64,000 nucleotides of DNA from an uncultured Pseudomonadota bacterium (GTDB taxonomy: Bacteria > Pseudomonadota > Gammaproteobacteria > Steroidobacterales > Steroidobacteraceae). The number at the start of each line of letters is the position of its first letter. Position 1 is the first letter of the stretch. Under the pieces are notes generated by a model. That model made no database searches, was not told where the DNA came from, and saw nothing but the letters and a program-made list of their open reading frames with translations. Of this stretch, positions 6,867 through 53,192 are shown in pieces. The position numbers were made by a program, and so were the translations under genes. The stretch is from assembly GCA_903838705.1 (NCBI GenBank), contig CAILZL010000028.1, positions 428-64,427 on the forward strand. Reading direction: 5' to 3'.

Positions 6867-6942
6867 TGGTGCCCCGGGCAGGAGTTGAACCTGCGACCTA
6901 CCGCTTAGGAGGCGGTCGCTCTATCCACTGAGCTACCGGGGC
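6867..6942 (-). tRNA. tRNA-Arg (anticodon CCT)
   Basis: The reverse complement folds by hand into a 76-nt cloverleaf: acceptor GCCCCGG/CCGGGGC, D arm GCTC-AGTGGATA-GAGC, anticodon arm ACCGC-CTCCTAA-GCGGT, T arm GCAGG-TTCAACT-CCTGC, discriminator A and an encoded CCA. Confidence 0.93.
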
Positions 6943-7042
6943 AATACTCGACCGACAGACTTCCGAGCTGAGTCATCCCTTGACAGTCCGATTCAACTCC
7001 ACAGGTATGGATTAAAGAATCCAGCGTTGCTTGATCGAAATT

Positions 7043-7118
7043 TGGTGGAGCCGAGGAGGATCGAACTCCTGACCTTCTCATTGCGAACGAGACGCTCTCC
7101 CAGCTGAGCTACGGCCCC
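7043..7118 (-). tRNA. tRNA-Ala (anticodon CGC)
   Basis: The reverse complement is GGGGCCGTAGCTCAGCTGGGAGAGCGTCTCGTTCGCAATGAGAAGGTCAGGAGTTCGATCCTCCTCGGCTCCACCA. It forms a canonical cloverleaf with the G3:U70 alanine identity pair, anticodon loop TTCGCAA and an encoded CCA. Confidence 0.93.
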
Positions 7119-35537: not shown

Positions 35538-36633
35538 TTACAAACCCTGCTTCAAACTCGCTTCCAGAAACTGATCAAGATCACCATCCAGTACCGCTGT
35601 GGTATTTCCCACCTCAACACCGGTGCGCAGATCCTTGATGCGTGACTGATCCAGCACATAGGAGCGAATCTGGTTTCCCCAGCTCACGTCAGACTTGGAA
35701 TCTTCCAGCACCTGAGCAGCCGCATTGCGCTTATTGACTTCCAGCTCATAGAGTTTCGCTTTGAGCATTTTCATGGCCTTGTCGCGGTTCTTGTGCTGAC
35801 TGCGCTCCGCCTGACACGCCACCACGATGCCGGAAGGCATATGAGTAATGCGCACCGCAGACTCCGTCTTGTTCACGTGCTGACCACCCGCACCGCTGGA
35901 CCGGTACACATCGGTTTTCAGGTCAGCCGGATTGATGGTGATGTCAATGTCATCATCGATTTCCGGCGAGACGAATACGGAAGCAAAGGAGGTATGTCGT
36001 CGTGCGTTGGAATCAAACGGTGACTTGCGGACCAGCCGATGCACACCAATTTCGGTTCGCAACCAGCCATAAGCGTAGTCGCCTTCAAAACTCAGACTGC
36101 AACTTTTGATGCCGGCGACTTCGCCACCATTGGCATCGATAACTTCAGTCCTGAACCCGTGCGCATCGCCCCAGCGCATATACATACGCATCAGCATATT
36201 GGCCCAGTCCTGTGCCTCAGTACCACCGGCACCGGCCTGTATGTCCAGATAAGCATTGTGTGAATCCATCTGGCCGGGGAACATGCGCCGGAATTCCAGA
36301 TTCTTCACGTCACGTTCGACAGCCGCCACATCCCGTTCAACGCCGGCCACGGTGCTCTCGTCGTTTTCTTCAACTGCCATACCCAGCAGTTCAACTGCGT
36401 CAGACAAAGCAGCCTTGATGCGATCCAGTGTACCTACGGTCTGTTCAAGCTTGGCGCGCTCGCGGCCCAGTTCCTGTGCCCGTTCCGGTGTATCCCATAT
36501 TTTCGGGTCTTCCAGTTCGCGACTGACTTCTGTCAGGCGTTCTGCCTTGTTATCGTATTCAAAGAAACCCCCGTAACGCAGTGCTGCGCTCTGTCAGGTC
36601 TTCGATGCTGCGGCGGATCAGGTTGACTTCCAT
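35538..36633 (-). CDS. prfB: Peptide chain release factor 2, expressed via a programmed +1 ribosomal frameshift
   Basis: Frame 0 from the ATG at 36633 reads [24 protein letters not shown] then TGA. Shifting +1 at CTT-T continues as [29 protein letters not shown]... and joins the long ORF, which carries SPF and GGQHVN motifs. Confidence 0.93.
36559..36573 (-). promoter_or_regulatory. prfB +1 frameshift recoding site (internal SD-like GGGGG + CTT TGA)
   Basis: The minus strand reads CGG GGG TTT CTT TGA A, compared with E. coli AGG GGG TAT CTT TGA C. Confidence 0.9.
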
Positions 36634-42734: not shown

Positions 42735-42901
42735 TCAGGCAACCGGCACAGAAAACCGGAAGACCGCAAACCTCCAGAGCAACAGGCGCAGGGATTTTAG
42801 TGATACCCGTCAGGGAAATACACGACTTAATCGCCCCGCCTGTCTGACACCGCATCCGCCGGTGCTATAGTTTGCGCGTACCACACGTCAGGAGATCGGT
42901 C

Positions 42902-43195
42902 ATGCGCCTTGCTCAAACTCTCACGCTGCTGCTCGCCAGCCTGACCTGCGTCGCTGCCGGGTCAGAAGATGTTGCCCTGCCCGCCAACAGGACAGAGACG
43001 GCCGCACCTTCCGGAACCGCAACGACTGTCACCACGCCGGCACGCGGTGCCAGCATGGCGCAGGTGGAAGCACAGTACGGCGCACCGACAGAACGTCATT
43101 CCGCCATCGGAAACCCGCCCATCACTCGTTGGGATTACCCTGGTTTCAGCGTCTTCTTCGAACACCAGCATGTGGTACACAGCGTGGTGCGCTGA
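42902..43195 (+). CDS. Small secreted/lipoprotein-like conserved hypothetical
   Basis: It has a GGAGA Shine-Dalgarno 8 nt before the ATG at 42902, a signal peptide MRLAQTLTLLLASLTCVAAG, and a conserved-looking C-terminus PPITRWDYPGFSVFFEHQHVVHSVV. Confidence 0.65.
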   Translation: MRLAQTLTLLLASLTCVAAGSEDVALPANRTETAAPSGTATTVTTPARGASMAQVEAQYGAPTERHSAIGNPPITRWDYPGFSVFFEHQHVVHSVVR

Positions 43196-43387
43196 AGCTG
43201 CTGTTGGTTGATTCCATTCGATATGAACGTAGTGAGGCTCATCAGCAACGGGCACTTCATATTCACCCATTCAGGCTGGCGCGTAAAATCAAAGCCATAT
43301 ATCAATGGGGCTCTTCAGAAGAAGTGGCCCTGACAATTTGAACAACAAAACGCGCCTCCTTGAATGATGCTTCGCGGTTAAGTTCCC

Positions 43388-43800
43388 TCAGCGAGCGTCA
43401 GCACAATTGAAGAACACGGAATCGGGCATGAGCTGGTCAAGTAACGCATGCTGACGACGGGTATTGTAGAACTGAAAGTGGCGTGTCACTCCGGCTTGCG
43501 TGGGGCTCGCGGTTTCTTAGGTACGCGGGTAGACTGCCTCGTACTTCACTAACTTGCTTAACCGTTCGACAAATACCTTGTCACCTCAATGACCTCTGCC
43601 ATACATCCTGATGCGGATGTCACGTTCCTTGAGCACGACGATGAACTCCAGCTTGGTGAACTGGCTGACCTGATCGGTGTTGAAAACCCCGGAACAACCA
43701 TATTTGGCCAGTACGTACTTCAACGCTTCGACACAGAAGTCCGTGGTCAATGTGTTCGACAGCCGCAAGGCGAGTACCTTATAGGTATACTTCGCAATTT
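43388..43800 (-). mobile_element. IS3-family (IS407-like) transposase orfB remnant: 5'-truncated integrase-core fragment with in-frame stops
   Basis: My minus-strand translation gives ...KVLALRLSNTLTTDFCVEALKYVLAKYGCSGVFNTDQVSQFTKLEFIVVLKERDIRIRMYGRGH*GDKVFVERLSKLVKYEAVYPRT*ETASPTQAGVTRHFQFYNTRRQHALLDQLMPDSVFF. This is the rve/DDE core and C-terminus of IS3 transposases. It has no N-terminal half and no orfA, and two internal stops interrupt the frame. Confidence 0.8.
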
Positions 43801-43916
43801 ATAGAGTAATGAATGCCATTAATCACCTGATTATAAATCGCAATAACAAAAGACTGTAGAAGCGGAGACCGACTGATGGGAGACGAACTCTGTTCGTTTC
43901 GGTCAATGGAAAAACG

Positions 43917-46900
43917 ATGACAACTGTGAATTTAGACTCTTCCGTGCTGACATCTGCGCTTGAACAGTTACGCCTCAAGCTCTTGGATCTCACCGGCCGA
44001 AATCGCCTGATTAATTTCAAGCATGCTGCTGGAAAATCACTTCAGTTCATAGAAGGTCAACCAGCGGCGATCTACAAGAGACTGGTCGAAGCAAATAACA
44101 AAGACAACATCAGCATCCTCGGGTTACCAGAACCCGCCAGAGGAGACTGGGTGGAGCGCAACGGTCGCTTGCAAAGACCCGACCCTCGGGAATGGGCCAA
44201 GTCTCAGGGGATCACAACAAGCTACGACATTCCTGTTGCCGGCGAGAGCTCTTATAACTCGAATGTCCGAACACTTATGTACCCCGACGATCTCGCGAAG
44301 CACTGCCGCAAGATTGAGCGTGAGGCCACGCTCGCTATTGAGGAAACGGGCGCAAACATGCTGTTCTTGGTGCTTGGATTCTTAGAATTTCCAGACCAGC
44401 GTGACAGCGACAAGACCTTCACTTCACCCTTGATCAGCGTCCCAGTGTCGTTGCAGAAAAAGGAAATCGCGGGTATCCAGCAATTTTCGCTCCAGTACAC
44501 AGACGATGATATCTCCGAGAACCTTTCTCTTCGAGAGAAACTTCGCAATGACTTCGGATTGATCTTGCCTGAACTCGCCGAAGAACAGATCGACGTAAAC
44601 GACTACTTCACCAAGATTCAGTCAATCATCAAGCAGCAACCTGGTTTCGCACTCAAGCATCGTGTTTCCTTGTGTTTGCTGAGCTTTAGCAACATGCTGT
44701 TGGTGAGAGACCTTGATCCGACCAAATGGCCATCAAACGGGGATGAAAACTCTCTCATTGACCATCCAATCGTCCGCGAGGTGTTCGAAGGCAGAGCCGA
44801 TAAAGGCGGAGCGGGACTCAGTTTGGCTGAGGAACATCTGGTGGAAGAAAGCCCTGGCGCCAGCATCCCATTGGTCTATGACGCTGATAGTTCTCAGCAC
44901 AGCGCCCTAATCGATGTCCTGTCGCTCAAGAAAAACCTAGTGATCGAAGGCCCACCGGGAACCGGCAAGTCTCAGACCATCACAAACCTGATCGCGGCCT
45001 GCCTTGCAGAAGGCAAGAAGGTGCTTTTCGTCGCCGAAAAGCTGGCTGCTCTTGAAGTCGTAAAAAACCGCCTGTCGCTGGCTGGCCTAGATCCGTTTGT
45101 TCTTGAGCTGCACAGTAACAAGACTAACAAGAAGCGAGTCTTAGAGGAAATTGCCAAGCGAACCGCCTTCAGGCCCAAATATCCAAATGATCTCCCCCGA
45201 TTGCAACAGCAGTTGGAGGCTCATCGCCAAGATCTCAAAGCCTACACAGACCTGATCAACTCCGTCGCTCACAACGCGTTTGGCTTAACGCTCCATCAGA
45301 TCATGTGGCGAGCTGAGAAACACCGCAAAGGTCTGAGCAACGACGAAGGCATGCTCAGCCAGATCAAAATCAGCGATGCAACGCAAATATCCGAATTCGA
45401 ATTCGGTCGTCGCATGGACTGTCTGGGGTATCTCGGGTCCCAATACAAGCTGGTTGGTGGCTTTGACGCAAGCAGCACCTTCTGGGGCTTCTACCCTGAA
45501 CGTCTGATTCCCGGAGATGAAGTTAGTCTCGCCAAGTTATTTGAGGCGGCTAATGGATGGTCTCGAACCTTTGTGGATGACGCGAAGCACTTCTCGCAAG
45601 TGCTCGGAGGCCAAGTCTACAACCTTTCACTGGCTTTCAGCGGCGATCAACTCACCGTACTGAAGAGTCTGCTCGAGACTGCCAATCAGCAGTTACCACT
45701 TCACCTCATCCCTGGTTTCTTTGAGGGTGATGAGACAGGAACTAAAGCGGCCCAGGCGATTGACGCATTCGCCAAACAGGTCGAGCAGTTCCATAGCCTT
45801 GCGGGATCCGTCAATACAGCCCTGAAGCTGGAGACCAGCGTTACTAAATCGGTCGCAGAAGATCTCAAGAGTCTGCAACGAATCGCTAGTAGCTTGGGCG
45901 CGGAACTGGGTACGCTCAACGATCTGCGCACCCTGCATCAGCACCTCGTTGAGGCTACTGGCAAACTCTCAACGGCTGATGCCAACCTGATCGGTTTCCT
46001 CAACGGAAAGGGCATCCCCTATGACGGATCAAAGCAGAAGCTAGAGCAGTTGCTCAGTTTTACCGATCTCGTGTTGGATGCACCTGAGGAGCACTTCCAT
46101 CTCCAAACCCCCGGACTGACTCACGATGGTGCAGTTCAGGCCATTGATCAGTTACTTTCTCTTCAAGGAGAATGGACCAACCTTGAAAAAGAACTCGGGG
46201 ACTCGCTCTATGTAGATGCCCTGCCGCATGAAGAAGACATCAAGCAAGCCATCCTAGCCCTGCGAGAAGGCGACACGTGGTATCGCATCTTTCAAAGCCA
46301 GTGGCGCAAAGCTGTAGGGTTGCATAAAGCACTCCAGCGCACCAAGATCAAGATACCAAGCCATAAGCGGCTGGAGCAGCTCGAGCAAATCGTCAAATTG
46401 CTGGGCCTTAAAGAGCAATGGAAGTCATCACCTACTTGGACGCAGTTCCTCAGCTTCCCTGCGCCAGCAATTCCCTCCCCGCTTGAGAAATATCTTGCTC
46501 TGGCGCTATGGAATCGTGGAATCAAGATCGCCTTTGAAGAAATTCAGACTGTACTGATCGACCCAATCAGCTTTACCGCCGACCAAGCCCGAGCGCTGCG
46601 CCGTGAATTCTCGATGGTCAAGCTGGAGATCACGACTGCAATCGCAGCCTGTAGCGACATAAATGAAAAGCTCAAACGCCTCACGGAATTCAACGGCAAC
46701 CATCTCATCGGCAAAACGCTCGAGAAGACAGGAGAGTTCACGAAAGCACTTCATGACCGATTCGAGTGGCTTGAGCTGGAGGCGCGGAGCCAGGCCACGT
46801 ACAGCCAAGTAATCACTGGATGCGATGCTGCCTTGGAGCGCTCGGCGATGAAATCGCAGATTCAAGCCAATACCCGCGTTAAGTCGCTCCTTGGCGATCT

Positions 46901-49370
46901 CTATCTGGACGTGGGCACAGACTGTTCAACCGCCCTCGAAGCGCTGTCCTTCGGTCAAAGTATCGATGGTCTCAACTTGTCGCCACAGATCAAGTACAAG
47001 CTGCGCACTGGGCATCCTCTTGAAGCCTGTCGAACTCTAGCAGCCGCGCTGGAGTCCGTTTGCACGGGGCTACAGCAGGTTGAGAGGTTGTGCAACTCCG
47101 TGTCTGAGTTTGGAAAACTTGAACTTGATACATGGACGGGCGCACCGGCAGACGAGGACTTGGAGGCATTTGCCAGCGCCCTGCATCGCTCAGTTCGACA
47201 GGCTATTCAGGATAAGGACCAGCTGATTCCCTGGTCGCTGTATTTGACCCGTCGCAAGGAAGCCTGTGAACTGACATTGGCCGAATTTGTGGATCTTCTC
47301 GAGAGAAAACGAGTCAGGCCCGACGAGTTGCAAGACGCCTATGCCTATTGCACTTACAGCACGATAACTCGCGAAGCCTTCCGGACCATTCCCCAACTGG
47401 GGCGGTTCACAGGACTCAAACACAACCAGATTCGCGATGAGTTCAAGCGGCTAGACAAGGAGATCACTGCTTTGCGAGGGAAAGCCATCGCCTACGAATG
47501 TGCCCGCAAGGCCTCTCCGACACCCGGCAGAAATGGTGCCCGCGTTGACGACCGAACTGAGATGGTTCTCTTGAATTATCTGATGCCTCAACAACGGCCA
47601 CGCATGCCCGTTCGGAAAATTCTGACCCGAGCGGGTCAATCGACCCAGGCACTCAAACCCTGCTTCATGATGGGTCCTCAAGCCGTGGCCCAATACCTAG
47701 CTCCAGGCGTCATCAAATTTGACCTCGTTATCATGGACGAAGCATCCCAGTTGAAGCCCGAGGAAGCTATCGGCTCGGTTGCACGCGGTGGTCAATTGGT
47801 AGTGGTCGGTGACCCCAAGCAGCTGCCCCCGACCTCGTTCTTCTCACGGATGTCTCAAGACGGTGACGGTGGTGACGATCACTTCACCACTACGGATGCC
47901 GAGAGCATCCTAGACGTCTGTTCATCGCATTTCAGGCCAACCCGCTCTTTGCGTTGGCACTATCGCTCACAGCACCATTCGCTGATCGCCTTCTCGAACC
48001 ACAGCTTCTACCGCGGCAATCTGGTGATTTTCCCCTCGCCTTATGGGCAAGGGGGCAAGCTAGGCGTTCGAGCTGTTTACTTGGCCGACGCCATCTACGA
48101 AAACCAAACAAATCTGCGCGAAGCCAAGCGGGCCGTGGACGCAGTCGTCGAGCACATTGCATCCCGCCCTAACGAGTCCCTTGGGATCGTAACGCTGAAC
48201 ATCAAGCAGCGTGACTTGATTGCCGAACTGCTGGAAGAGCGCCTTAAGTCTGCTCGGGGAGCGGACTCCTATCGAGATCACTGGGCTACGGAGGGGCAAC
48301 CCCTGTTCATCAAGAACCTTGAAAACGTCCAAGGTGACGAGCGAGACGCCATCATCATCTCAACGACATTTGGCAAGCCACCAGGTTCCAACGCTGTTCG
48401 CCAGAACTTCGGCCCTATCAGTCGACAAGGCGGGTGGAGACGACTGAACGTGCTTTTCACCCGTGCCAAGAAGTCAATAGCGCTTTACACGTCCCTGCGT
48501 CCAGAGGACATCGTGATGGATGGCACTACTCCGGACGGCACTAAGGCGCTTCGCAACTACCTCGAATACGCACGTACTGGTTTATTGACAACCCTCGAGG
48601 AAACGGATCGAGAACCAGACAGTGATTTCGAGATCACCGTCATGGACATGCTCAAACTGCGTGGCTACGAAGTCACGCCACAGCTAGGCGTAGCGGGCTA
48701 CCGCATCGACATTGCCGTAAAGCACCCTGACGCTCCCGGTTCCTATCTGGCAGCGGTAGAGTGCGACGGCGCTACCTACCACTCGGCCTTGTCAGTCCGT
48801 GATCGCGATCGCATCCGTCAAGAGATACTCGAGTCGCTCGGATGGCGTGGCCGTATTTGGCGTATTTGGTCAACAGACTGGTTCCGCACTCCACGACAAG
48901 AAACAGAGAAGCTCATCGGCTTCCTTGAGGATCTCCGAAAAAGCTGGAAACCCGAGCACGCTGCCGGAGAAGCTTGGATCGAAGAAGGGCAAGGTGCATG
49001 GCAACCTACTATTCGCATCACTAAGCAAGTTGAAACTGTTGAGAACACAGCTCAAGCCGAGATCGAGCGAGAGACGGTAAGCTCTGTACTGATCGACACA
49101 GAAGACGATTTGGAAATCGAGGTAGGAGATTTTGTTCGATATATTGATCTTGCACGCCCTAACGACGTTATGTCAGTCCAGATCACCAGAGGCAAAGACG
49201 ACTTTGCCAACGGGATTGTGAATGAAAGCCGTCCTCTAGCACAGGCAATACTCGGTGCCGTAGTCGGTGACGAGGTAGTGCTTCACCTTGCTGGAAGCGC
49301 ATCAAAGACGTTCCAAATCGTGGATATTAAGAGATCACGGGACATGCAACCTATAAGCGTCACGATATGA
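43917..49370 (+). CDS. 1817-aa DUF4011-like / Upf1-like SF1 helicase / Vsr-DUF559-like PD-(D/E)xK nuclease / GreA-GreB-C-terminal-like fusion protein (candidate Hhe-like defence helicase-nuclease)
   Basis: Single uninterrupted ORF. The N-terminus has LKLLDLTGRNRLINFKH and LFLVLGFLEF...SPLISVPVSL, which are DUF4011-like. The helicase motifs are Walker A GPPGTGKSQT (about aa 345), Walker B VIMDEASQ (about aa 1271), VVVGDPKQLPPT, RWHYRS, VQGDERDAIIIS and RLNVLFTRAKKS. The nuclease core is GYRIDIAV...AVECDGATYHS (about aa 1571-1676). The C-terminal VGDFVRY...NESRPLAQAILGAVVGDEVVL resembles the GreA/B C-terminal domain. Confidence 0.85.
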   Translation: MTTVNLDSSVLTSALEQLRLKLLDLTGRNRLINFKHAAGKSLQFIEGQPAAIYKRLVEANNKDNISILGLPEPARGDWVERNGRLQRPDPREWAKSQGITTSYDIPVAGESSYNSNVRTLMYPDDLAKHCRKIEREATLAIEETGANMLFLVLGFLEFPDQRDSDKTFTSPLISVPVSLQKKEIAGIQQFSLQYTDDDISENLSLREKLRNDFGLILPELAEEQIDVNDYFTKIQSIIKQQPGFALKHRVSLCLLSFSNMLLVRDLDPTKWPSNGDENSLIDHPIVREVFEGRADKGGAGLSLAEEHLVEESPGASIPLVYDADSSQHSALIDVLSLKKNLVIEGPPGTGKSQTITNLIAACLAEGKKVLFVAEKLAALEVVKNRLSLAGLDPFVLELHSNKTNKKRVLEEIAKRTAFRPKYPNDLPRLQQQLEAHRQDLKAYTDLINSVAHNAFGLTLHQIMWRAEKHRKGLSNDEGMLSQIKISDATQISEFEFGRRMDCLGYLGSQYKLVGGFDASSTFWGFYPERLIPGDEVSLAKLFEAANGWSRTFVDDAKHFSQVLGGQVYNLSLAFSGDQLTVLKSLLETANQQLPLHLIPGFFEGDETGTKAAQAIDAFAKQVEQFHSLAGSVNTALKLETSVTKSVAEDLKSLQRIASSLGAELGTLNDLRTLHQHLVEATGKLSTADANLIGFLNGKGIPYDGSKQKLEQLLSFTDLVLDAPEEHFHLQTPGLTHDGAVQAIDQLLSLQGEWTNLEKELGDSLYVDALPHEEDIKQAILALREGDTWYRIFQSQWRKAVGLHKALQRTKIKIPSHKRLEQLEQIVKLLGLKEQWKSSPTWTQFLSFPAPAIPSPLEKYLALALWNRGIKIAFEEIQTVLIDPISFTADQARALRREFSMVKLEITTAIAACSDINEKLKRLTEFNGNHLIGKTLEKTGEFTKALHDRFEWLELEARSQATYSQVITGCDAALERSAMKSQIQANTRVKSLLGDLYLDVGTDCSTALEALSFGQSIDGLNLSPQIKYKLRTGHPLEACRTLAAALESVCTGLQQVERLCNSVSEFGKLELDTWTGAPADEDLEAFASALHRSVRQAIQDKDQLIPWSLYLTRRKEACELTLAEFVDLLERKRVRPDELQDAYAYCTYSTITREAFRTIPQLGRFTGLKHNQIRDEFKRLDKEITALRGKAIAYECARKASPTPGRNGARVDDRTEMVLLNYLMPQQRPRMPVRKILTRAGQSTQALKPCFMMGPQAVAQYLAPGVIKFDLVIMDEASQLKPEEAIGSVARGGQLVVVGDPKQLPPTSFFSRMSQDGDGGDDHFTTTDAESILDVCSSHFRPTRSLRWHYRSQHHSLIAFSNHSFYRGNLVIFPSPYGQGGKLGVRAVYLADAIYENQTNLREAKRAVDAVVEHIASRPNESLGIVTLNIKQRDLIAELLEERLKSARGADSYRDHWATEGQPLFIKNLENVQGDERDAIIISTTFGKPPGSNAVRQNFGPISRQGGWRRLNVLFTRAKKSIALYTSLRPEDIVMDGTTPDGTKALRNYLEYARTGLLTTLEETDREPDSDFEITVMDMLKLRGYEVTPQLGVAGYRIDIAVKHPDAPGSYLAAVECDGATYHSALSVRDRDRIRQEILESLGWRGRIWRIWSTDWFRTPRQETEKLIGFLEDLRKSWKPEHAAGEAWIEEGQGAWQPTIRITKQVETVENTAQAEIERETVSSVLIDTEDDLEIEVGDFVRYIDLARPNDVMSVQITRGKDDFANGIVNESRPLAQAILGAVVGDEVVLHLAGSASKTFQIVDIKRSRDMQPISVTI

Positions 49371-49697: not shown

Positions 49698-52600
49698 TTG
49701 AGCAAGAAATTCCTTCTGCCTTCTGCTGAAAAGCCACGCGTACGCTGGGGCCAGCTGTATGGCTCTGCCATGGCGTTAAAACTGGCCGAGGCGGCACAGC
49801 AATTATCTGCGCCGCTGCTGGTGATTGCCGGCAACGCCCGCGAACTCAGCCGCCTTGAAGATGAGCTGCGGGTATTTCTGCCCGGGTCGGTGTCACTGCT
49901 GAGCCTGCCCGGCTGGGAAACCTTGCCCTATGATCAGTTTGCACCGCATCCGGACATTATTTCGCAGCGCCTGAGCACCCTGTCGCGTCTGCCGCATCTG
50001 AAACAGGGTGTGGTGCTGGTGGATGTGGATACGGTGATACAGCGATTGCCGCCCCGCAGCTATATCGAGGCACACGCCTTTGATATTGCGGTCGGTCATC
50101 AGCTGGAACTCCATTCGTTTCGCAACAAGCTGACAGCCGCAGGCTATGCGCATGTTTCGCAGGTTATGGCACCCGGCGAATTTGCAGTGCGCGGCTCGTT
50201 GCTGGATCTGTTCCCGATGGGCAGTGCGACACCTTATCGCATTGATCTGTTCGATGAAGAAGTGGAAAGCATCCGCAGCTTCGATGCCGACACACAACGC
50301 ACGCTGGAAAAGACGGAACACATTCATCTGCTGCCCGCACATGAGTTTCCGCTCAGTACCGAAGGCGTGCAGTTGTTCAAGCGGCAGTTCCGCACGCGCT
50401 TTGAAGGCGACCTGACCCGTGTGCCCATATACAAGGACGTGACCGAAGGCGCCGCACCAGCCGGCATTGAATACTACCTGCCGCTGTTCTTTGAACAGGT
50501 CAGCGAGATTTTCACTTATCTGCCCGCTGAGTCTGCTGTGGCCTGCACCGCTGAATTCAGTGGCCTGCTGGAAGAGTCGTGGAACTCCATTGTGATGCGT
50601 CACGAACAACGGGCGCATGATGTGGAACGTCCAATCCTGACTCCGCAAGAACTGTTCCTGCCACCTGCGGAATTTCTGGAGCAGCTGAACTCACGCCGAC
50701 AGATCGAACTGTTCGTCAATGAACTTGATCCGAACCGGCAGCATATTTCCTGGCAGAACTTTGACAGCACCACGCCCCCCCCCGTGAAACTGGATGCTCG
50801 CGCACCCGAACCGGCACGCGCCTTGCTGGATCATCTGCACACCTATCAGGGTCGCACTCTGATTGCTGCGGAGTCGACAGGACGCCGCGAAATGATACTG
50901 GATATTCTGCGCAAGCATCAGCTCAATGCACCCAGCATTGATGACTGGCAGCTGTTCATGAACAGCGAAATTCCGCTGGCCATTACTGTCTCGCCGATTG
51001 CACGCGGCCTGCAACTGAAAGACCCTGCGATCACGGTGCTGGCTGAAGAACAGCTGTTCGGTGAACGCGGCAGACAGGAGCGACGCCGCCGTCGTGCGGA
51101 TCGTGATCCGGAAAAAATTATTCGTGACCTGTCCGATCTGATGCCGGGTTCACCCGTGGTGCATGATGAATACGGCGTAGGCCGTTATCTGGGATTGCAG
51201 ACCATGGAAGCCGGCGGACTCATGGGCGAGTTTCTGGTGCTGGAATATGCCGATGGCGACAAGATTTATGTGCCGGTGCAATCTCTGGATCGGGTCAGTC
51301 GCTACACCGGTTCGGGTGGCGATAACGCGCCGCTACATAAACTCGGCACAGACACCTGGGCAAAGGCCAAGAAAAAAGCCGCGCAGAAAGTACGTGATAC
51401 GGCGGTGGAACTGCTCGACCTGTATGCACGCCGCGCGGCACGTCAGGGCACATCATTGCAAGCTGCTGATGCAGACATGCTGGCCTTTGCGGATGCGTTC
51501 CGCTTTGAAGAAACCCCGGATCAGGCTCAGGCCATTGCCGCCGTGGTTGAAGACATGCGCAGCGGCAAACCGATGGATCGCGTGGTGTGTGGTGATGTGG
51601 GTTTCGGTAAAACCGAAGTCGCGCTGCGTGCGGCATTCGTAGCGGTGCAAGCGGGCAAGCAGGTGGTGGTGCTGGTGCCCACCACACTGCTCGCACAACA
51701 GCACTACCAGACCTTTGCGGATCGCTTCGCAGACTGGCCGGTGAAAGTTGAGACCATGTCACGCTTCCGCACCACCGCGCAGGTGAATGAAGCGTTGAAG
51801 GGACTGGAAGCCGGCACGGTGGATATCGTGGTGGGTACGCATCGCCTGTTGCAGAGCTCGGTGCACTTCAAGAATCTGGGCTTGATCATCATCGACGAGG
51901 AACATCGCTTCGGTGTGAAGGACAAGGAAAAACTGAAACATCTGCGTGCAGAAGTGGATGTACTGACCCTGACCGCCACCCCCATTCCGCGTACTTTGAA
52001 CATGGCCATGGGTGGCCTGCGTGATCTGTCGCTGATCACCACACCGCCCTCTTCACGCCTCGCCATCAAAACCTTTGTCACGCCCTTCGATGGCACTGCG
52101 GTACGTGAAGCCTGTCTGCGCGAGATCCGACGTGGCGGCCAGATCTACTATGTTCACAACAGCGTGGACACCATCGAAAAGACCGCACGCATGCTCAGTG
52201 AGCTGGTGCCTGAATCCAATATCGCCATCGGTCACGGACAGATGCGTGAACGCGAACTGGAACAGGTGATGCTGGATTTCAGTCATCAACGTTGCAATCT
52301 GTTTGTCTGTACCACCATTGTAGAAAGCGGCATTGACGTGCCTACCGCCAACACCATCATCATTGATCGCGCCGATAAATTCGGTCTGGCACAGTTACAC
52401 CAGATGCGCGGTCGTGTGGGACGCTCACATCATCAGGCTTATGCCTACCTGCTCACGCCACCCAAGGCCAACATGACGCCGGATGCAATCAAGCGTCTGG
52501 AAGCCATCGAATCGCTGGAAGATCTTGGCGCTGGATTCACGCTGGCCACACATGACCTGGAAATCCGTGGTGCCGGTGAACTGCTGGGCGAAGGCCAGAG

Positions 52601-53192
52601 CGGCCAGATTCAGGAAATCGGTTTTGCGCTGTATATGGAAATGCTGGAACGCGCTGTCGAGGCGCTGAAACAGGGCAAGACGCCTGATCTTGATCAGCCG
52701 CTGCACCGTGGGCCGGAAGTTGATCTGCACGTACCCGCGCTGCTGCCTGAGGATTATATGCCTGATGTGCATATGCGGCTTGTGCTGTACAAACGCATTG
52801 CTGCGGCCGAGTCCACCGATGCGCTGCGCGATCTGCAAACGGAAATGATTGACCGGTTCGGACTGCTCACCGAAGCGGGCAAGAATCTGTTCCGGATTAC
52901 CGAGCTGAAACTGCGTGCCAAAGCCATCGGCATCCGCAAACTGGATCTGCACGCCAATGGTGGCTATGCCATGTTTGATAAAGATGCCAGCATCGATCCG
53001 ACCAACCTGATCCTGTTCGTGCAGCGTAATGCACGTACCCATAAATTTGATGGGCCACTGAAATTACGTTTCACCCTGCCACTTGAGCATCCCGAAGCCC
53101 GCTTCAAGGCTGCGGAAGATTTGCTGGATGGGATTACACTTGCGCCTGCGGCGATCGCTGCTGCAGCCATCGCCAAGAGCCGTAAAAACTGA
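49698..53192 (+). CDS. mfd: Transcription-repair coupling factor Mfd
   Basis: 1164 aa. It has a UvrB-homology N-terminus, an RNAP-interacting domain (VHDEYGVGRY), SF2 motifs (GDVGFGKTEVA, DEEHRFG, QLHQMRGRVGRS) and a TRG/CarD-like region. The ORF opens with TTG at 49698, and the first ATG is at 49767. Confidence 0.93.
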   Translation: MSKKFLLPSAEKPRVRWGQLYGSAMALKLAEAAQQLSAPLLVIAGNARELSRLEDELRVFLPGSVSLLSLPGWETLPYDQFAPHPDIISQRLSTLSRLPHLKQGVVLVDVDTVIQRLPPRSYIEAHAFDIAVGHQLELHSFRNKLTAAGYAHVSQVMAPGEFAVRGSLLDLFPMGSATPYRIDLFDEEVESIRSFDADTQRTLEKTEHIHLLPAHEFPLSTEGVQLFKRQFRTRFEGDLTRVPIYKDVTEGAAPAGIEYYLPLFFEQVSEIFTYLPAESAVACTAEFSGLLEESWNSIVMRHEQRAHDVERPILTPQELFLPPAEFLEQLNSRRQIELFVNELDPNRQHISWQNFDSTTPPPVKLDARAPEPARALLDHLHTYQGRTLIAAESTGRREMILDILRKHQLNAPSIDDWQLFMNSEIPLAITVSPIARGLQLKDPAITVLAEEQLFGERGRQERRRRRADRDPEKIIRDLSDLMPGSPVVHDEYGVGRYLGLQTMEAGGLMGEFLVLEYADGDKIYVPVQSLDRVSRYTGSGGDNAPLHKLGTDTWAKAKKKAAQKVRDTAVELLDLYARRAARQGTSLQAADADMLAFADAFRFEETPDQAQAIAAVVEDMRSGKPMDRVVCGDVGFGKTEVALRAAFVAVQAGKQVVVLVPTTLLAQQHYQTFADRFADWPVKVETMSRFRTTAQVNEALKGLEAGTVDIVVGTHRLLQSSVHFKNLGLIIIDEEHRFGVKDKEKLKHLRAEVDVLTLTATPIPRTLNMAMGGLRDLSLITTPPSSRLAIKTFVTPFDGTAVREACLREIRRGGQIYYVHNSVDTIEKTARMLSELVPESNIAIGHGQMRERELEQVMLDFSHQRCNLFVCTTIVESGIDVPTANTIIIDRADKFGLAQLHQMRGRVGRSHHQAYAYLLTPPKANMTPDAIKRLEAIESLEDLGAGFTLATHDLEIRGAGELLGEGQSGQIQEIGFALYMEMLERAVEALKQGKTPDLDQPLHRGPEVDLHVPALLPEDYMPDVHMRLVLYKRIAAAESTDALRDLQTEMIDRFGLLTEAGKNLFRITELKLRAKAIGIRKLDLHANGGYAMFDKDASIDPTNLILFVQRNARTHKFDGPLKLRFTLPLEHPEARFKAAEDLLDGITLAPAAIAAAAIAKSRKN

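Follow-up and report, generated by a model that had tools for sequence, protein, structure and literature searches.

The gene analysed here lies in a 64,000-nt stretch of DNA (the window, by which the whole stretch is meant) from contig CAILZL010000028.1 of an uncultured member of the Steroidobacteraceae (Gammaproteobacteria). It encodes a protein of 1817 residues that joins a DUF4011 domain, a superfamily 1 (SF1) helicase, a Vsr-like endonuclease and a GreA-type C-terminal domain. By profile and alignment evidence the protein is a member of the Hhe / ProA / PDC-S37 superfamily, falls outside both curated named families (Hhe and ProA), and stands for a clade of its own, set apart by an exchanged C-terminal domain. 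This GreA-tailed clade is a large sister clade of Hhe, and curated models name it just 'DUF4011 domain-containing protein'. The explanation we favour, and consider probable, is that the gene specifies a horizontally acquired, self-contained, ATP-driven helicase-nuclease that acts as an immune protein against phages or mobile DNA. A narrower proposal is put forward tentatively, namely that proteins of the GreA-tailed clade are immune helicase-nucleases tethered to RNA polymerase, using transcription complexes as a sensor platform rather than DNA ends or replication forks.

Domain layout and family placement

The open reading frame starts with ATG and runs without an internal stop, as seen in both the ORF list and the translation, and exactly where the first-pass annotation of this DNA had placed it. 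That annotation had described, by eye, a DUF4011 region, a Upf1-like SF1 helicase, a Vsr/DUF559-like nuclease and a GreA-like tail. Pfam matched each of these, the matches to the DUF4011, AAA_11, AAA_12 and restriction endonuclease families all being significant, and the motifs that had been quoted (LLDLTGRNRLINF, LGFLEF, Walker A, DEAS and ECDG..YH) were all located in the protein. The limits of the individual parts are collected in Table 1.

In the DUF4011 region, nine residues were invariant in the alignment of homologues (D24, R28, N29, R131, K132, R135, E143, E207 and K208), and the motifs LLDLTGRNRLINF and LGFLEF were found at residues 22-34 and within residues 141-158, respectively. An AlphaFold2 (AF2) model of residues 1-330 (pLDDT 77) had an alpha/beta fold. 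A fold assignment for this region was dropped, the top Foldseek matches being SPARDA chains and DIP2311 with TM ~0.1, as was the idea of a second PD-(D/E)xK nuclease, which the predicted order of secondary structures would permit and for which significant structural or motif support was not found.

The helicase begins with DADSSQHSAL (residues 322-331), read as the Q motif, followed by the Walker A motif GPPGTGKS (345-352). The later motifs, beyond a long insertion, were Walker B/DEAS within 1271-1278, motif III (VVVGDPKQLPP, 1295-1305), VQGDERD (1471-1477) and GGWRRLNVLFTRAK (1505-1518). Residues 323-389 matched the sequence of IGHMBP2/SMUBP-2 in the Protein Data Bank (PDB; E 7.9e-9), matches of the later helicase part included Sen1, and the whole protein matched NCBIfam TIGR00376, the IGHMBP2 family (E 1.9e-20). 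Because IGHMBP2 and Sen1 are the nearest solved helicases, and because of the TIGR00376 match, the motor is assigned to the Upf1-like SF1B helicases, whose AAA_11 and AAA_12 set it carries, with about 850 residues inserted into RecA1. Residues 400-1250 were modelled almost exclusively as helices (pLDDT 85, pTM 0.44), and in this stretch the alignment revealed a conserved patch, LREGDxWYRIFQxxWRKA (residues 782-799), where W and R residues were invariant; such patches of conserved aromatic and basic residues suggest a binding surface. Homology of the insertion to SMC proteins was considered and rejected, as Foldseek returned only generic coiled coils (Smc5/6, MukB, JetC; E ~1e-3, TM ~0.1).

In the nuclease domain the expected residues were present, D1598 in YRIDIAV and E1615 and D1617 in AVECDGATYH (ECDGATYH lying within 1613-1622), and they were nearly invariant across the clade. 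Among 33 sequences the catalytic motifs were likewise present and the helicase motifs nearly invariant.

Table 1. Features of the inserted segment and its flanks, in window coordinates
Feature	Position	Strand	Basis or remark
Small conserved ORF, ancestral left flank	42872..43195	+	immediately precedes mfd in relatives
Decayed IS3-family transposase remnant abutting brxR stub	43380..43792	-	rve match and blastn
brxR 3' stub (~90 nt) and conserved brxR-helicase intergenic leader, left cassette end	43793..43916	+	DNA homology
Hhe-superfamily helicase-nuclease, GreA-tailed clade	43917..49370	+	complete ORF; Pfam, PADLOC, NCBIfam matches
DUF4011 N-terminal domain, residues 21-209	43977..44543	+	Pfam PF13195, E 8.5e-36
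RecA1 first part: Q motif, Walker A, motif Ia	44874..45119	+	Pfam AAA_11, AAA_30, AAA_19 (~325-390)
All-helical RecA1 insertion, ~850 aa, residues 402-1250	45120..47666	+	AF2 model; elongated arm
Remainder of RecA1, and RecA2	47667..48536	+	AAA_11 at residues 1267-1307; AAA_12 at 1396-1522, E 3.6e-13
MTES_1575 / Vsr-DUF559-like endonuclease domain, residues 1571-1668	48627..48920	+	Pfam PF18741, E 4e-34
Acidic linker, residues 1669-1730	48921..49106	+	E-rich; length and sequence vary among homologues
GreA/GreB C-terminal-type domain, residues 1733-1806	49113..49334	+	PF01272 on isolated tail
Window-specific C-terminal extension RDMQPISVTI and stop	49338..49370	+	right junction of acquired segment
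mfd (transcription-repair coupling factor), ancestral right flank	49698..53192	+	NCBIfam NF007966, 1404.6 bits vs cut-off 1329

Hhe and ProA were the top two NCBIfam matches of the protein. The Hhe profile (NF042953) aligned in a single stretch to residues 14-1708 and ended at profile position 1718 of 1797, while the ProA profile (NF058533) aligned to residues 13-1707 from position 358 onwards, leaving about 357 N-terminal profile positions unmatched. The best PADLOC models, by bit score, were PDC-S37 (PDLC05009, 1189 bits) and Hhe (PDLC02194, 890 bits), and the scores for Hachiman, Druantia, Hna and Nhi were negligible (E 0.019 for Nhi). Five homologues from the genome scan served as controls for these family models. 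Two of them, from Alteromonas (2477.7 bits) and Piscirickettsia (2597.2 bits), passed the Hhe cut-off and were 33% identical to the window protein; those of Collimonas, a Chitinophagaceae metagenome-assembled genome (MAG) and a Bryobacterales MAG failed it, and the first two of these three have a GreA-type tail. The PDC-S37 match was broken into three stretches, of which the best spanned profile positions 637-1377 of 1550. It was taken to be generic, as the true Hhe proteins outscore the window protein on this model (1289-1303 bits), and PDC-S37 was not adopted as a specific assignment.

Klebsiella plasmid genes annotated as hhe encode proteins 34-36% identical to the window protein that match it only over residues 105-1674. 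The alignment with true Hhe proteins, which are equally long, extends from close to the N terminus as far as residue 1674, so the RecA1 insertion is shared by both, and it is common to the whole superfamily. After the motif WSTDW, at the end of the nuclease, the homologues split into two groups with unrelated tails: a GreA-tailed group (40 fetched loci, 41-88% identical to the window protein) and the group of Hhe proper (33-36% identical), with the tail motif LLRPAM...EF.P.SK.EFL..IP.YLR. The Hhe-type C-terminal module (profile positions ~1720-1797) is lacking in the window protein, which has the GreA-type domain instead. Three Hhe-type tails that were scanned gave no significant Pfam family, and a possible identity of this module with Pfam DUF3320 was dropped on that ground. 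The first-pass annotation had regarded two features of this copy as atypical, which we took to be the RecA1 insertion and the GreA-like tail; neither is peculiar to it, as the insertion occurs in true Hhe proteins and the tail throughout the clade. The same annotation had proposed a single-gene defence candidate of the Hhe class, a proposal that holds at the level of the superfamily (PADLOC, NCBIfam and defence islands) and fails for Hhe proper (1366 bits, below 2000).

The window protein and Hhe are alike in being polypeptides of about 1800 residues whose parts follow one another in the same order (DUF4011, first helicase part with Walker A, helical insertion of about 850 residues, rest of the helicase, MTES_1575/Vsr-like nuclease), and in being encoded on mobile DNA; they differ in the C-terminal module and in sharing just 33-36% identity. 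With ProA and PDC-S37 the helicase-nuclease core is held in common, whereas the ProA profile has some 357 additional N-terminal positions and that of PDC-S37 is shorter. Sen1 and IGHMBP2 have the closest solved helicase cores by sequence, with AAA_11 and AAA_12 motifs, but are eukaryotic, lack a nuclease and DUF4011 and have far smaller RecA1 insertions, so that the similarity is limited to the motor motifs. Sen1 is known to work on transcription complexes via the nascent RNA. Hhe itself, also called HheA, was reportedly first described by Gao et al. 2020. The hhe gene of E. coli has been described as a single-gene defence system with helicase and nuclease domains (PMC11482910), the only one so described in the literature consulted. 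Hachiman (HamAB), Druantia (DruE/DruH), Hna and Nhi follow the same logic, in which a nuclease is licensed by a helicase that detects or works on abnormal DNA structures (PMC12278908; bioRxiv 10.64898/2026.05.13.724313), but their helicases belong to other families (mostly SF2, or other SF1), and Hachiman and Druantia III are, as cited, two-protein systems. A search of a literature library found no publication on PDC-S37 or ProA, and no published mechanism for Hhe-type proteins was found.

The GreA-type tail

When the whole protein was scanned, the Pfam GreA_GreB C-terminal family matched residues 1734-1805 with 23.6 bits, under the gathering cut-off of 26.9, and the tail of the window protein scanned in isolation scored 30.1 bits (PF01272). 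The last ~90 residues were then cut from 24 diverse homologues and each was scanned separately; all 24 matched PF01272, with a best E value of 9.8e-11. A profile of the tail, compared with PDB sequences, gave E. coli GreA as its top match (1grj, E 2.8e-4), with Rnk (3bmb) and Gfh1 also recovered, and the tail and the Gre factors have the core G.v....PLA.aLLG..vGD.V.l..pg in common. On these profile matches the tail is to be regarded as a real GreA-type domain. A search of 1.84 billion representative proteins with the tail returned 161 matches at E <= 1e-3, and in all seven of the multi-domain tail-bearing proteins checked a helicase and an MTES_1575 domain precede it.

The last ~75 residues of the window protein are thus homologous to the globular C-terminal domain of GreA, GreB, Gfh1 and Rnk. 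Unlike the Gre factors, it has no N-terminal coiled coil with an acidic tip: none was detected, Pfam gave no match to the GreA_GreB N-terminal domain anywhere in the protein, and the NCBIfam greA models matched it only over model positions ~59-151. The domain here forms the tail of a 200-kDa helicase-nuclease, and as the coiled coil and acidic tip are missing, transcript cleavage is not to be expected.

HelD, an RNA polymerase recycling factor of Bacillus and Mycobacterium, can be read as a UvrD-like (SF1A-like) enzyme. It resembles the window protein in being an SF1-type NTPase with a Gre-like element, through which HelD enters the secondary channel of the polymerase (PMC7749165), but that element is a coiled-coil arm and not a globular domain, a nuclease is lacking, and HelD is a housekeeping factor. 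The globular C-terminal domain is the part of the Gre factors, Gfh1 and Rnk that binds RNA polymerase, and Rnk and the Gre factors compete for the enzyme (PMC4598747). Because of this binding role, and with HelD as a precedent, the tail may be a docking module for RNA polymerase. A literature search combining GreA with anti-phage found nothing relevant.

The product of phage T7 gene 2 is an inhibitor of the host RNA polymerase. In a phage knockout screen with E. coli hhe, the possible triggers were the T7 class II region (g1.4 to g2, and g2.8) and Bas63 g40, and weak counter-effects were seen for NAD+ synthesis genes (PMC11482910). The appearance of the gene 2 region among the possible triggers hints at a link to the polymerase, and is only suggestive because the E. 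coli Hhe has no Gre-type tail.

Some variation in architecture was observed within the clade. Among five variants (P0306, P0318, P0350, P0383 and P0218) was a fragment with two tandem GreA-type domains after the nuclease. Full-length variants of ~2090-2100 residues also exist, two of which (~2090 residues) carry DUF4011 as well, and one variant of 2524 residues has additional matches to PF23310 and Sel1 repeats.

Insertion site, transfer and neighbourhoods of relatives

The helicase gene is found in the window between a small conserved ORF and mfd. The left flank of the segment consists of lolCDE and the small ORF, which encodes 107 residues from a TTG start (it was also called as 97), with a hydrophobic, signal-peptide-like N terminus and without any Pfam or NCBIfam match. 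Homologues of the small ORF, 49-68% identical, were found at 15 metagenome loci, and at each of the 14 that also carry lolC the gene order was lolC(-), small ORF(+), mfd(+), with Mfd proteins 55-70% identical to that of the window. In these 14 relatives the gap between the small ORF and mfd is ~190-320 bp and the helicase gene is absent, compared with a gap of 6.5 kb in the window, and the G+C content is lower within the segment, all of which bears out the earlier description of this DNA as inserted.

Traces of the former surroundings of the gene were identified at both junctions. On the left, window positions 43789-43950 were 78-82% identical to the 3' end of brxR, the spacer and the first helicase codons of five relatives (L016, L004, L009, L021 and L003). 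Homology to the cassette begins at ~43793, inside the last ~90 nt of brxR, and ends at ~49338, about ten codons before the stop, and includes ~125 nt of conserved leader upstream of the helicase gene. A tblastn search with BrxR, a protein of wHTH-WYL-WCX layout, found nothing in the window other than this ~90-nt 3' end (43793-43880), and none of the partner genes brxR, gmrSD and hsdMSR remains there. Next to the stub lies the insertion sequence (IS) remnant that had been noticed earlier: a broken ORF (43586-43765, minus strand) matched Pfam rve (E 3e-4), and in a blastn search of 43200-43800 the region ~43510-43780 matched IS3-family transposase genes on plasmids with 65-68% identity. On the right, the last ~10 codons (RDMQPISVTI) have no counterpart in the relatives, which end 2-9 codons after the shared ...IKR(S/T); this extension appears to have arisen when loss of the native 3' end let the frame read on into junction DNA, with the GreA-type domain left complete. 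Neither a target-site duplication nor a terminal repeat was found at the junctions. A scan for promoters and terminators gave fewer sites than shuffled sequence.

These remains suggest that the gene arrived by horizontal transfer within a cassette, with brxR upstream and restriction genes downstream, that an IS3 element destroyed the regulator gene brxR, and that the helicase gene is the sole survivor, lodged between the small conserved ORF and mfd. The gene had been called stand-alone in the first-pass annotation, which is correct for the window, where no partners are left, but this is a secondary state, as close relatives have brxR upstream and gmrSD and/or a type I restriction-modification (R-M) system downstream.

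Horizontal transfer is indicated by a difference in relatedness between the helicase and its neighbour, since helicase proteins 79-88% identical occur across families and classes while relatives of the adjoining Mfd reach at most 70%. In data with one genome per species, the proteins of 79-88% identity came from Comamonadaceae, Alcaligenaceae, Rhodocyclaceae and Acidithiobacillus montserratensis, with Extensimonas, Brachymonas, Zwartia, Jezberella and Limnohabitans among the genera, and those of 51-67% identity from MAGs labelled Acidobacteriales, Bdellovibrio, Chlorobium and Chitinophagaceae; for the Mfd encoded in the window, the metagenome scan found no relative above 70%. The distribution was patchy, a scan of 185,579 species genomes, limited to six peptide patterns taken from the query, yielding only 306 matching stretches. 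Two database searches each returned more than 7000 clusters at E <= 1e-10 for the helicase-nuclease superfamily as a whole, and among the matches listed, 240 of 240 shared the size and domain set of the clade, the named sources being Extensimonas, Zwartia, Massilia, Duganella, Azoarcus, Paraburkholderia and Azonexus.

Comparison with five relatives 85-88% identical gave dN/dS values of 0.055-0.084 at dS ~1, which means strong purifying selection. The motor (0.01-0.02) and the nuclease (0.025) were the most constrained parts and the linker and tail the least; dN was highest in the linker (0.19-0.30), and in linker and tail alike saturation of synonymous sites means that no ratio is computable. 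An identical protein is encoded on seven contigs from several metagenomes, and since contigs from several samples share this arrangement of the locus, their proteins being identical or 99% identical, the insertion is fixed in this population.

The neighbourhoods of relatives were counted among 40 loci of the GreA-tailed clade. A BrxR/WYL gene stood directly upstream of the helicase gene in nine (eight intact, the ninth shortened), separated from it in the subclade of 79-88% identity by a 41-nt gap or overlapping it by 4 nt; homologues of BrxR are known to head defence loci (PMC9122589). Other defence neighbours were type I R-M (seven loci), GmrSD (five) and Wadjet (three). The stop codon of the helicase gene overlaps by 4 nt the start of hsdM (L002) or of gmrSD (L004, L009), with hsdS and hsdR following. 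In Brachymonas chironomi (L004:2204-25442) the complete order is jetABCD, brxR, helicase gene, gmrSD, hsdM, a PRTase-CE gene, hsdS and hsdR. The cassette was found in at least seven loci, with additional loci retaining a mere N-terminal stub of HsdM. The island that holds the helicase gene in Zwartia vadi also encodes an integrase and AlpA, and hsdMSR and a GmrSD_N-family gene come after the helicase gene. On a 1.49-Mb metagenome contig (L001), brxR, the helicase gene and an HsdM stub were found amid HEPN/NTase and BrnT toxin pairs, and on two IMG/VR contigs the helicase gene is accompanied by hsdMSR, sometimes by gmrSD as well. Distant members lie in a TrfA/WYL/PLD region (Azoarcus) and an H-NS/IS110 region (Paraburkholderia). 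The relatives are, then, associated with defence islands and mobile elements, rather than being uniformly core genes, the outcome that the first-pass annotation had named as fatal to a defence role. A different setting was seen in the chromosome of Massilia violaceinigra (L081:10001-15496), where a solo copy, 57% identical to the Collimonas clade member, is flanked by core genes: those for OsmC and a GSDH-type dehydrogenase to one side, those for NAD kinase and RecN, hemH and grpE-dnaK-dnaJ to the other.

Several further features of these loci were recorded. The recurrent cassette (brxR, helicase gene, gmrSD, hsdM, PRTase-CE (PF24390), hsdS, hsdR) was represented in L004, L006, L016, L009, L165 and L166, and is preceded by a complete Wadjet jetABCD in L004, L009 and L021. 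Between cassette loci, HsdM and HsdR were 78-93% identical and HsdS just 35-64%, and it is unusual for a PRTase-CE gene to lie between hsdM and hsdS. Upstream of brxR in L001 (809-8984), a cluster on the other strand specifies an HSP70-like protein of 840 aa, a protein kinase-AAA fusion of 585 aa and several further proteins to which Pfam gave no match. Related ORFs occur in L003, L011, L013 and L016, the HSP70-like gene being found in four loci and an uncharacterised protein of ~500 aa in three, and the cluster may be an undescribed defence module.

Proposed role and competing explanations

According to the favoured explanation, an immune helicase-nuclease, the SF1B motor, with all of its motifs intact, would translocate on single-stranded nucleic acid, in the 5'-3' direction if it behaves like its family. 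DUF4011, a putative nucleic-acid-binding or sensor domain, and the helical arm of ~850 residues may select or sense the substrate, or restrain the enzyme, and the Vsr/MTES_1575-type nuclease, with D1598, E1615 and D1617 intact, would cut the DNA fed to it by the motor. The Gre-type tail is proposed to tether the enzyme to the rim of the RNA polymerase secondary channel, so coupling surveillance or attack to transcription complexes, and candidate targets would be polymerase stalled or hijacked by a phage, or R-loops on invading DNA. If tethering of this kind operates across the clade, a Sen1-like motor could load on nascent RNA or on the displaced DNA strand whenever a phage stalls, inhibits or redirects the polymerase, and the nuclease could then cut the invading DNA being transcribed.

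A number of observations weigh against these proposals. The match to the Hhe model (1365.9 bits) is under its curated equivalog cut-off of 2000, and that to ProA (1080.1 bits) under its cut-off of 1500. The putative defence role is drawn from 33% identity to Hhe and from gene neighbourhood. A Foldseek search of the PDB with the DUF4011 region (residues 1-330) gave no match with E < 0.1, and no informative fold match was obtained by Foldseek for the helical arm. The residues that the tail has in common with the Gre factors could be purely structural. In the window, brxR and its promoter are gone, and no sigma-70-like promoter was detected by a consensus scan in the interval from the IS remnant to the start codon. 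The strong purifying selection would suit a housekeeping gene as well, as would the solitary position amid core genes, seen both here and in Massilia, and in P. aeruginosa a large DUF4011 gene belongs to the core genome (PMC10250203).

These last points bear most directly on the possibility of a housekeeping role in genome maintenance, in which a polymerase-tethered helicase, similar in action to Sen1 or HelD, would clear R-loops or polymerases that have stalled, and would introduce nicks for DNA repair, having been domesticated beside mfd. Such a role would also be in keeping with the low dN/dS (~0.07), the retention of an identical protein at the same site in several metagenome samples, the sequence kinship with Sen1 and IGHMBP2 and the Gre-type polymerase-binding domain. 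We consider it unlikely, however, as the gene is patchily distributed, is absent from the 14 closest syntenic relatives of the host locus and has moved between families and classes, as its 79-88% identities indicate. Its relatives, moreover, follow brxR in defence islands and mobile elements, and the nearest named families are anti-phage proteins. The gene, with its putative polymerase-binding tail, is the immediate upstream neighbour of mfd, whose product itself acts on RNA polymerase; this adjacency was seen in no other locus and so looks coincidental.

The window copy might alternatively be an orphan with little or no activity by itself, if the protein is one component of a composite system with brxR, gmrSD and type I R-M. 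The 4-nt overlaps with hsdM or gmrSD in the 79-88% subclade, the recurrence of the cassette and of HsdM stubs, and the loss from the window of all partner genes along with the regulator's promoter can be understood in this way. Nevertheless, this is rather improbable given that the hhe gene of E. coli was described as a single-gene system (PMC11482910), that partners are missing in Massilia, Azoarcus, Paraburkholderia and most loci of ~43% identity, and that GmrSD and type I R-M are autonomous and commonly merely cluster with other systems. The orphan has also not decayed, since its ORF is intact, with all motifs, and identical on seven contigs. The same undecayed state makes it very unlikely that the gene is a silent relic, a structurally intact leftover of a dismantled defence island that is no longer expressed or used. 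A decayed IS3 remnant in place of brxR and its promoter, the junction-derived final ~10 codons and the lack of a promoter-like site between the IS remnant and the start codon would all be expected of a relic, but the 5.4-kb ORF carries no disabling mutation although the flanking IS has decayed to fragments, its GreA-type domain is complete through the last strand, the conserved leader of ~125 nt has been kept upstream, and one and the same allele has become fixed across the contigs of several samples.

With an immune function as the favoured explanation, the gene is best filed as a new, GreA-tailed variant of the Hhe-type superfamily and a candidate single-gene defence system, not as Hhe. Hhe-type proteins appear in every defence catalogue, and brxR, the helicase gene, sometimes gmrSD, and hsdMSR make up a recurrent defence module. 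The window gene is a clean, solo and intact example of the clade, with one clear difference from Hhe, and the swap of C-terminal modules gives a direct experimental handle on how such enzymes find their targets. The interest of the gene lies in the testable idea of polymerase tethering: should docking prove true, transcription-coupled sensing would join the known ways in which bacteria detect phages, and the protein would be a bacterial analogue of Sen1-type helicases. Should docking not be real, the value for annotation remains, and the clade deserves a model of its own, separate from Hhe or PDC-S37.

Two minor observations concern other parts of the window. Rfam and tRNA scans found no RNA gene in or near the helicase locus, and the sole Rfam/ARAGORN matches in the 64 kb were tRNA-Arg(CCU) and tRNA-Ala(CGC), at 6867-7118 on the minus strand. 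The release factor 2 gene (35538-36407, minus strand) was listed as a 289-aa ORF from an internal TTG, the ORF finder probably having missed the N-terminal part because of the programmed +1 frameshift that prfB usually has close to its 5' end.

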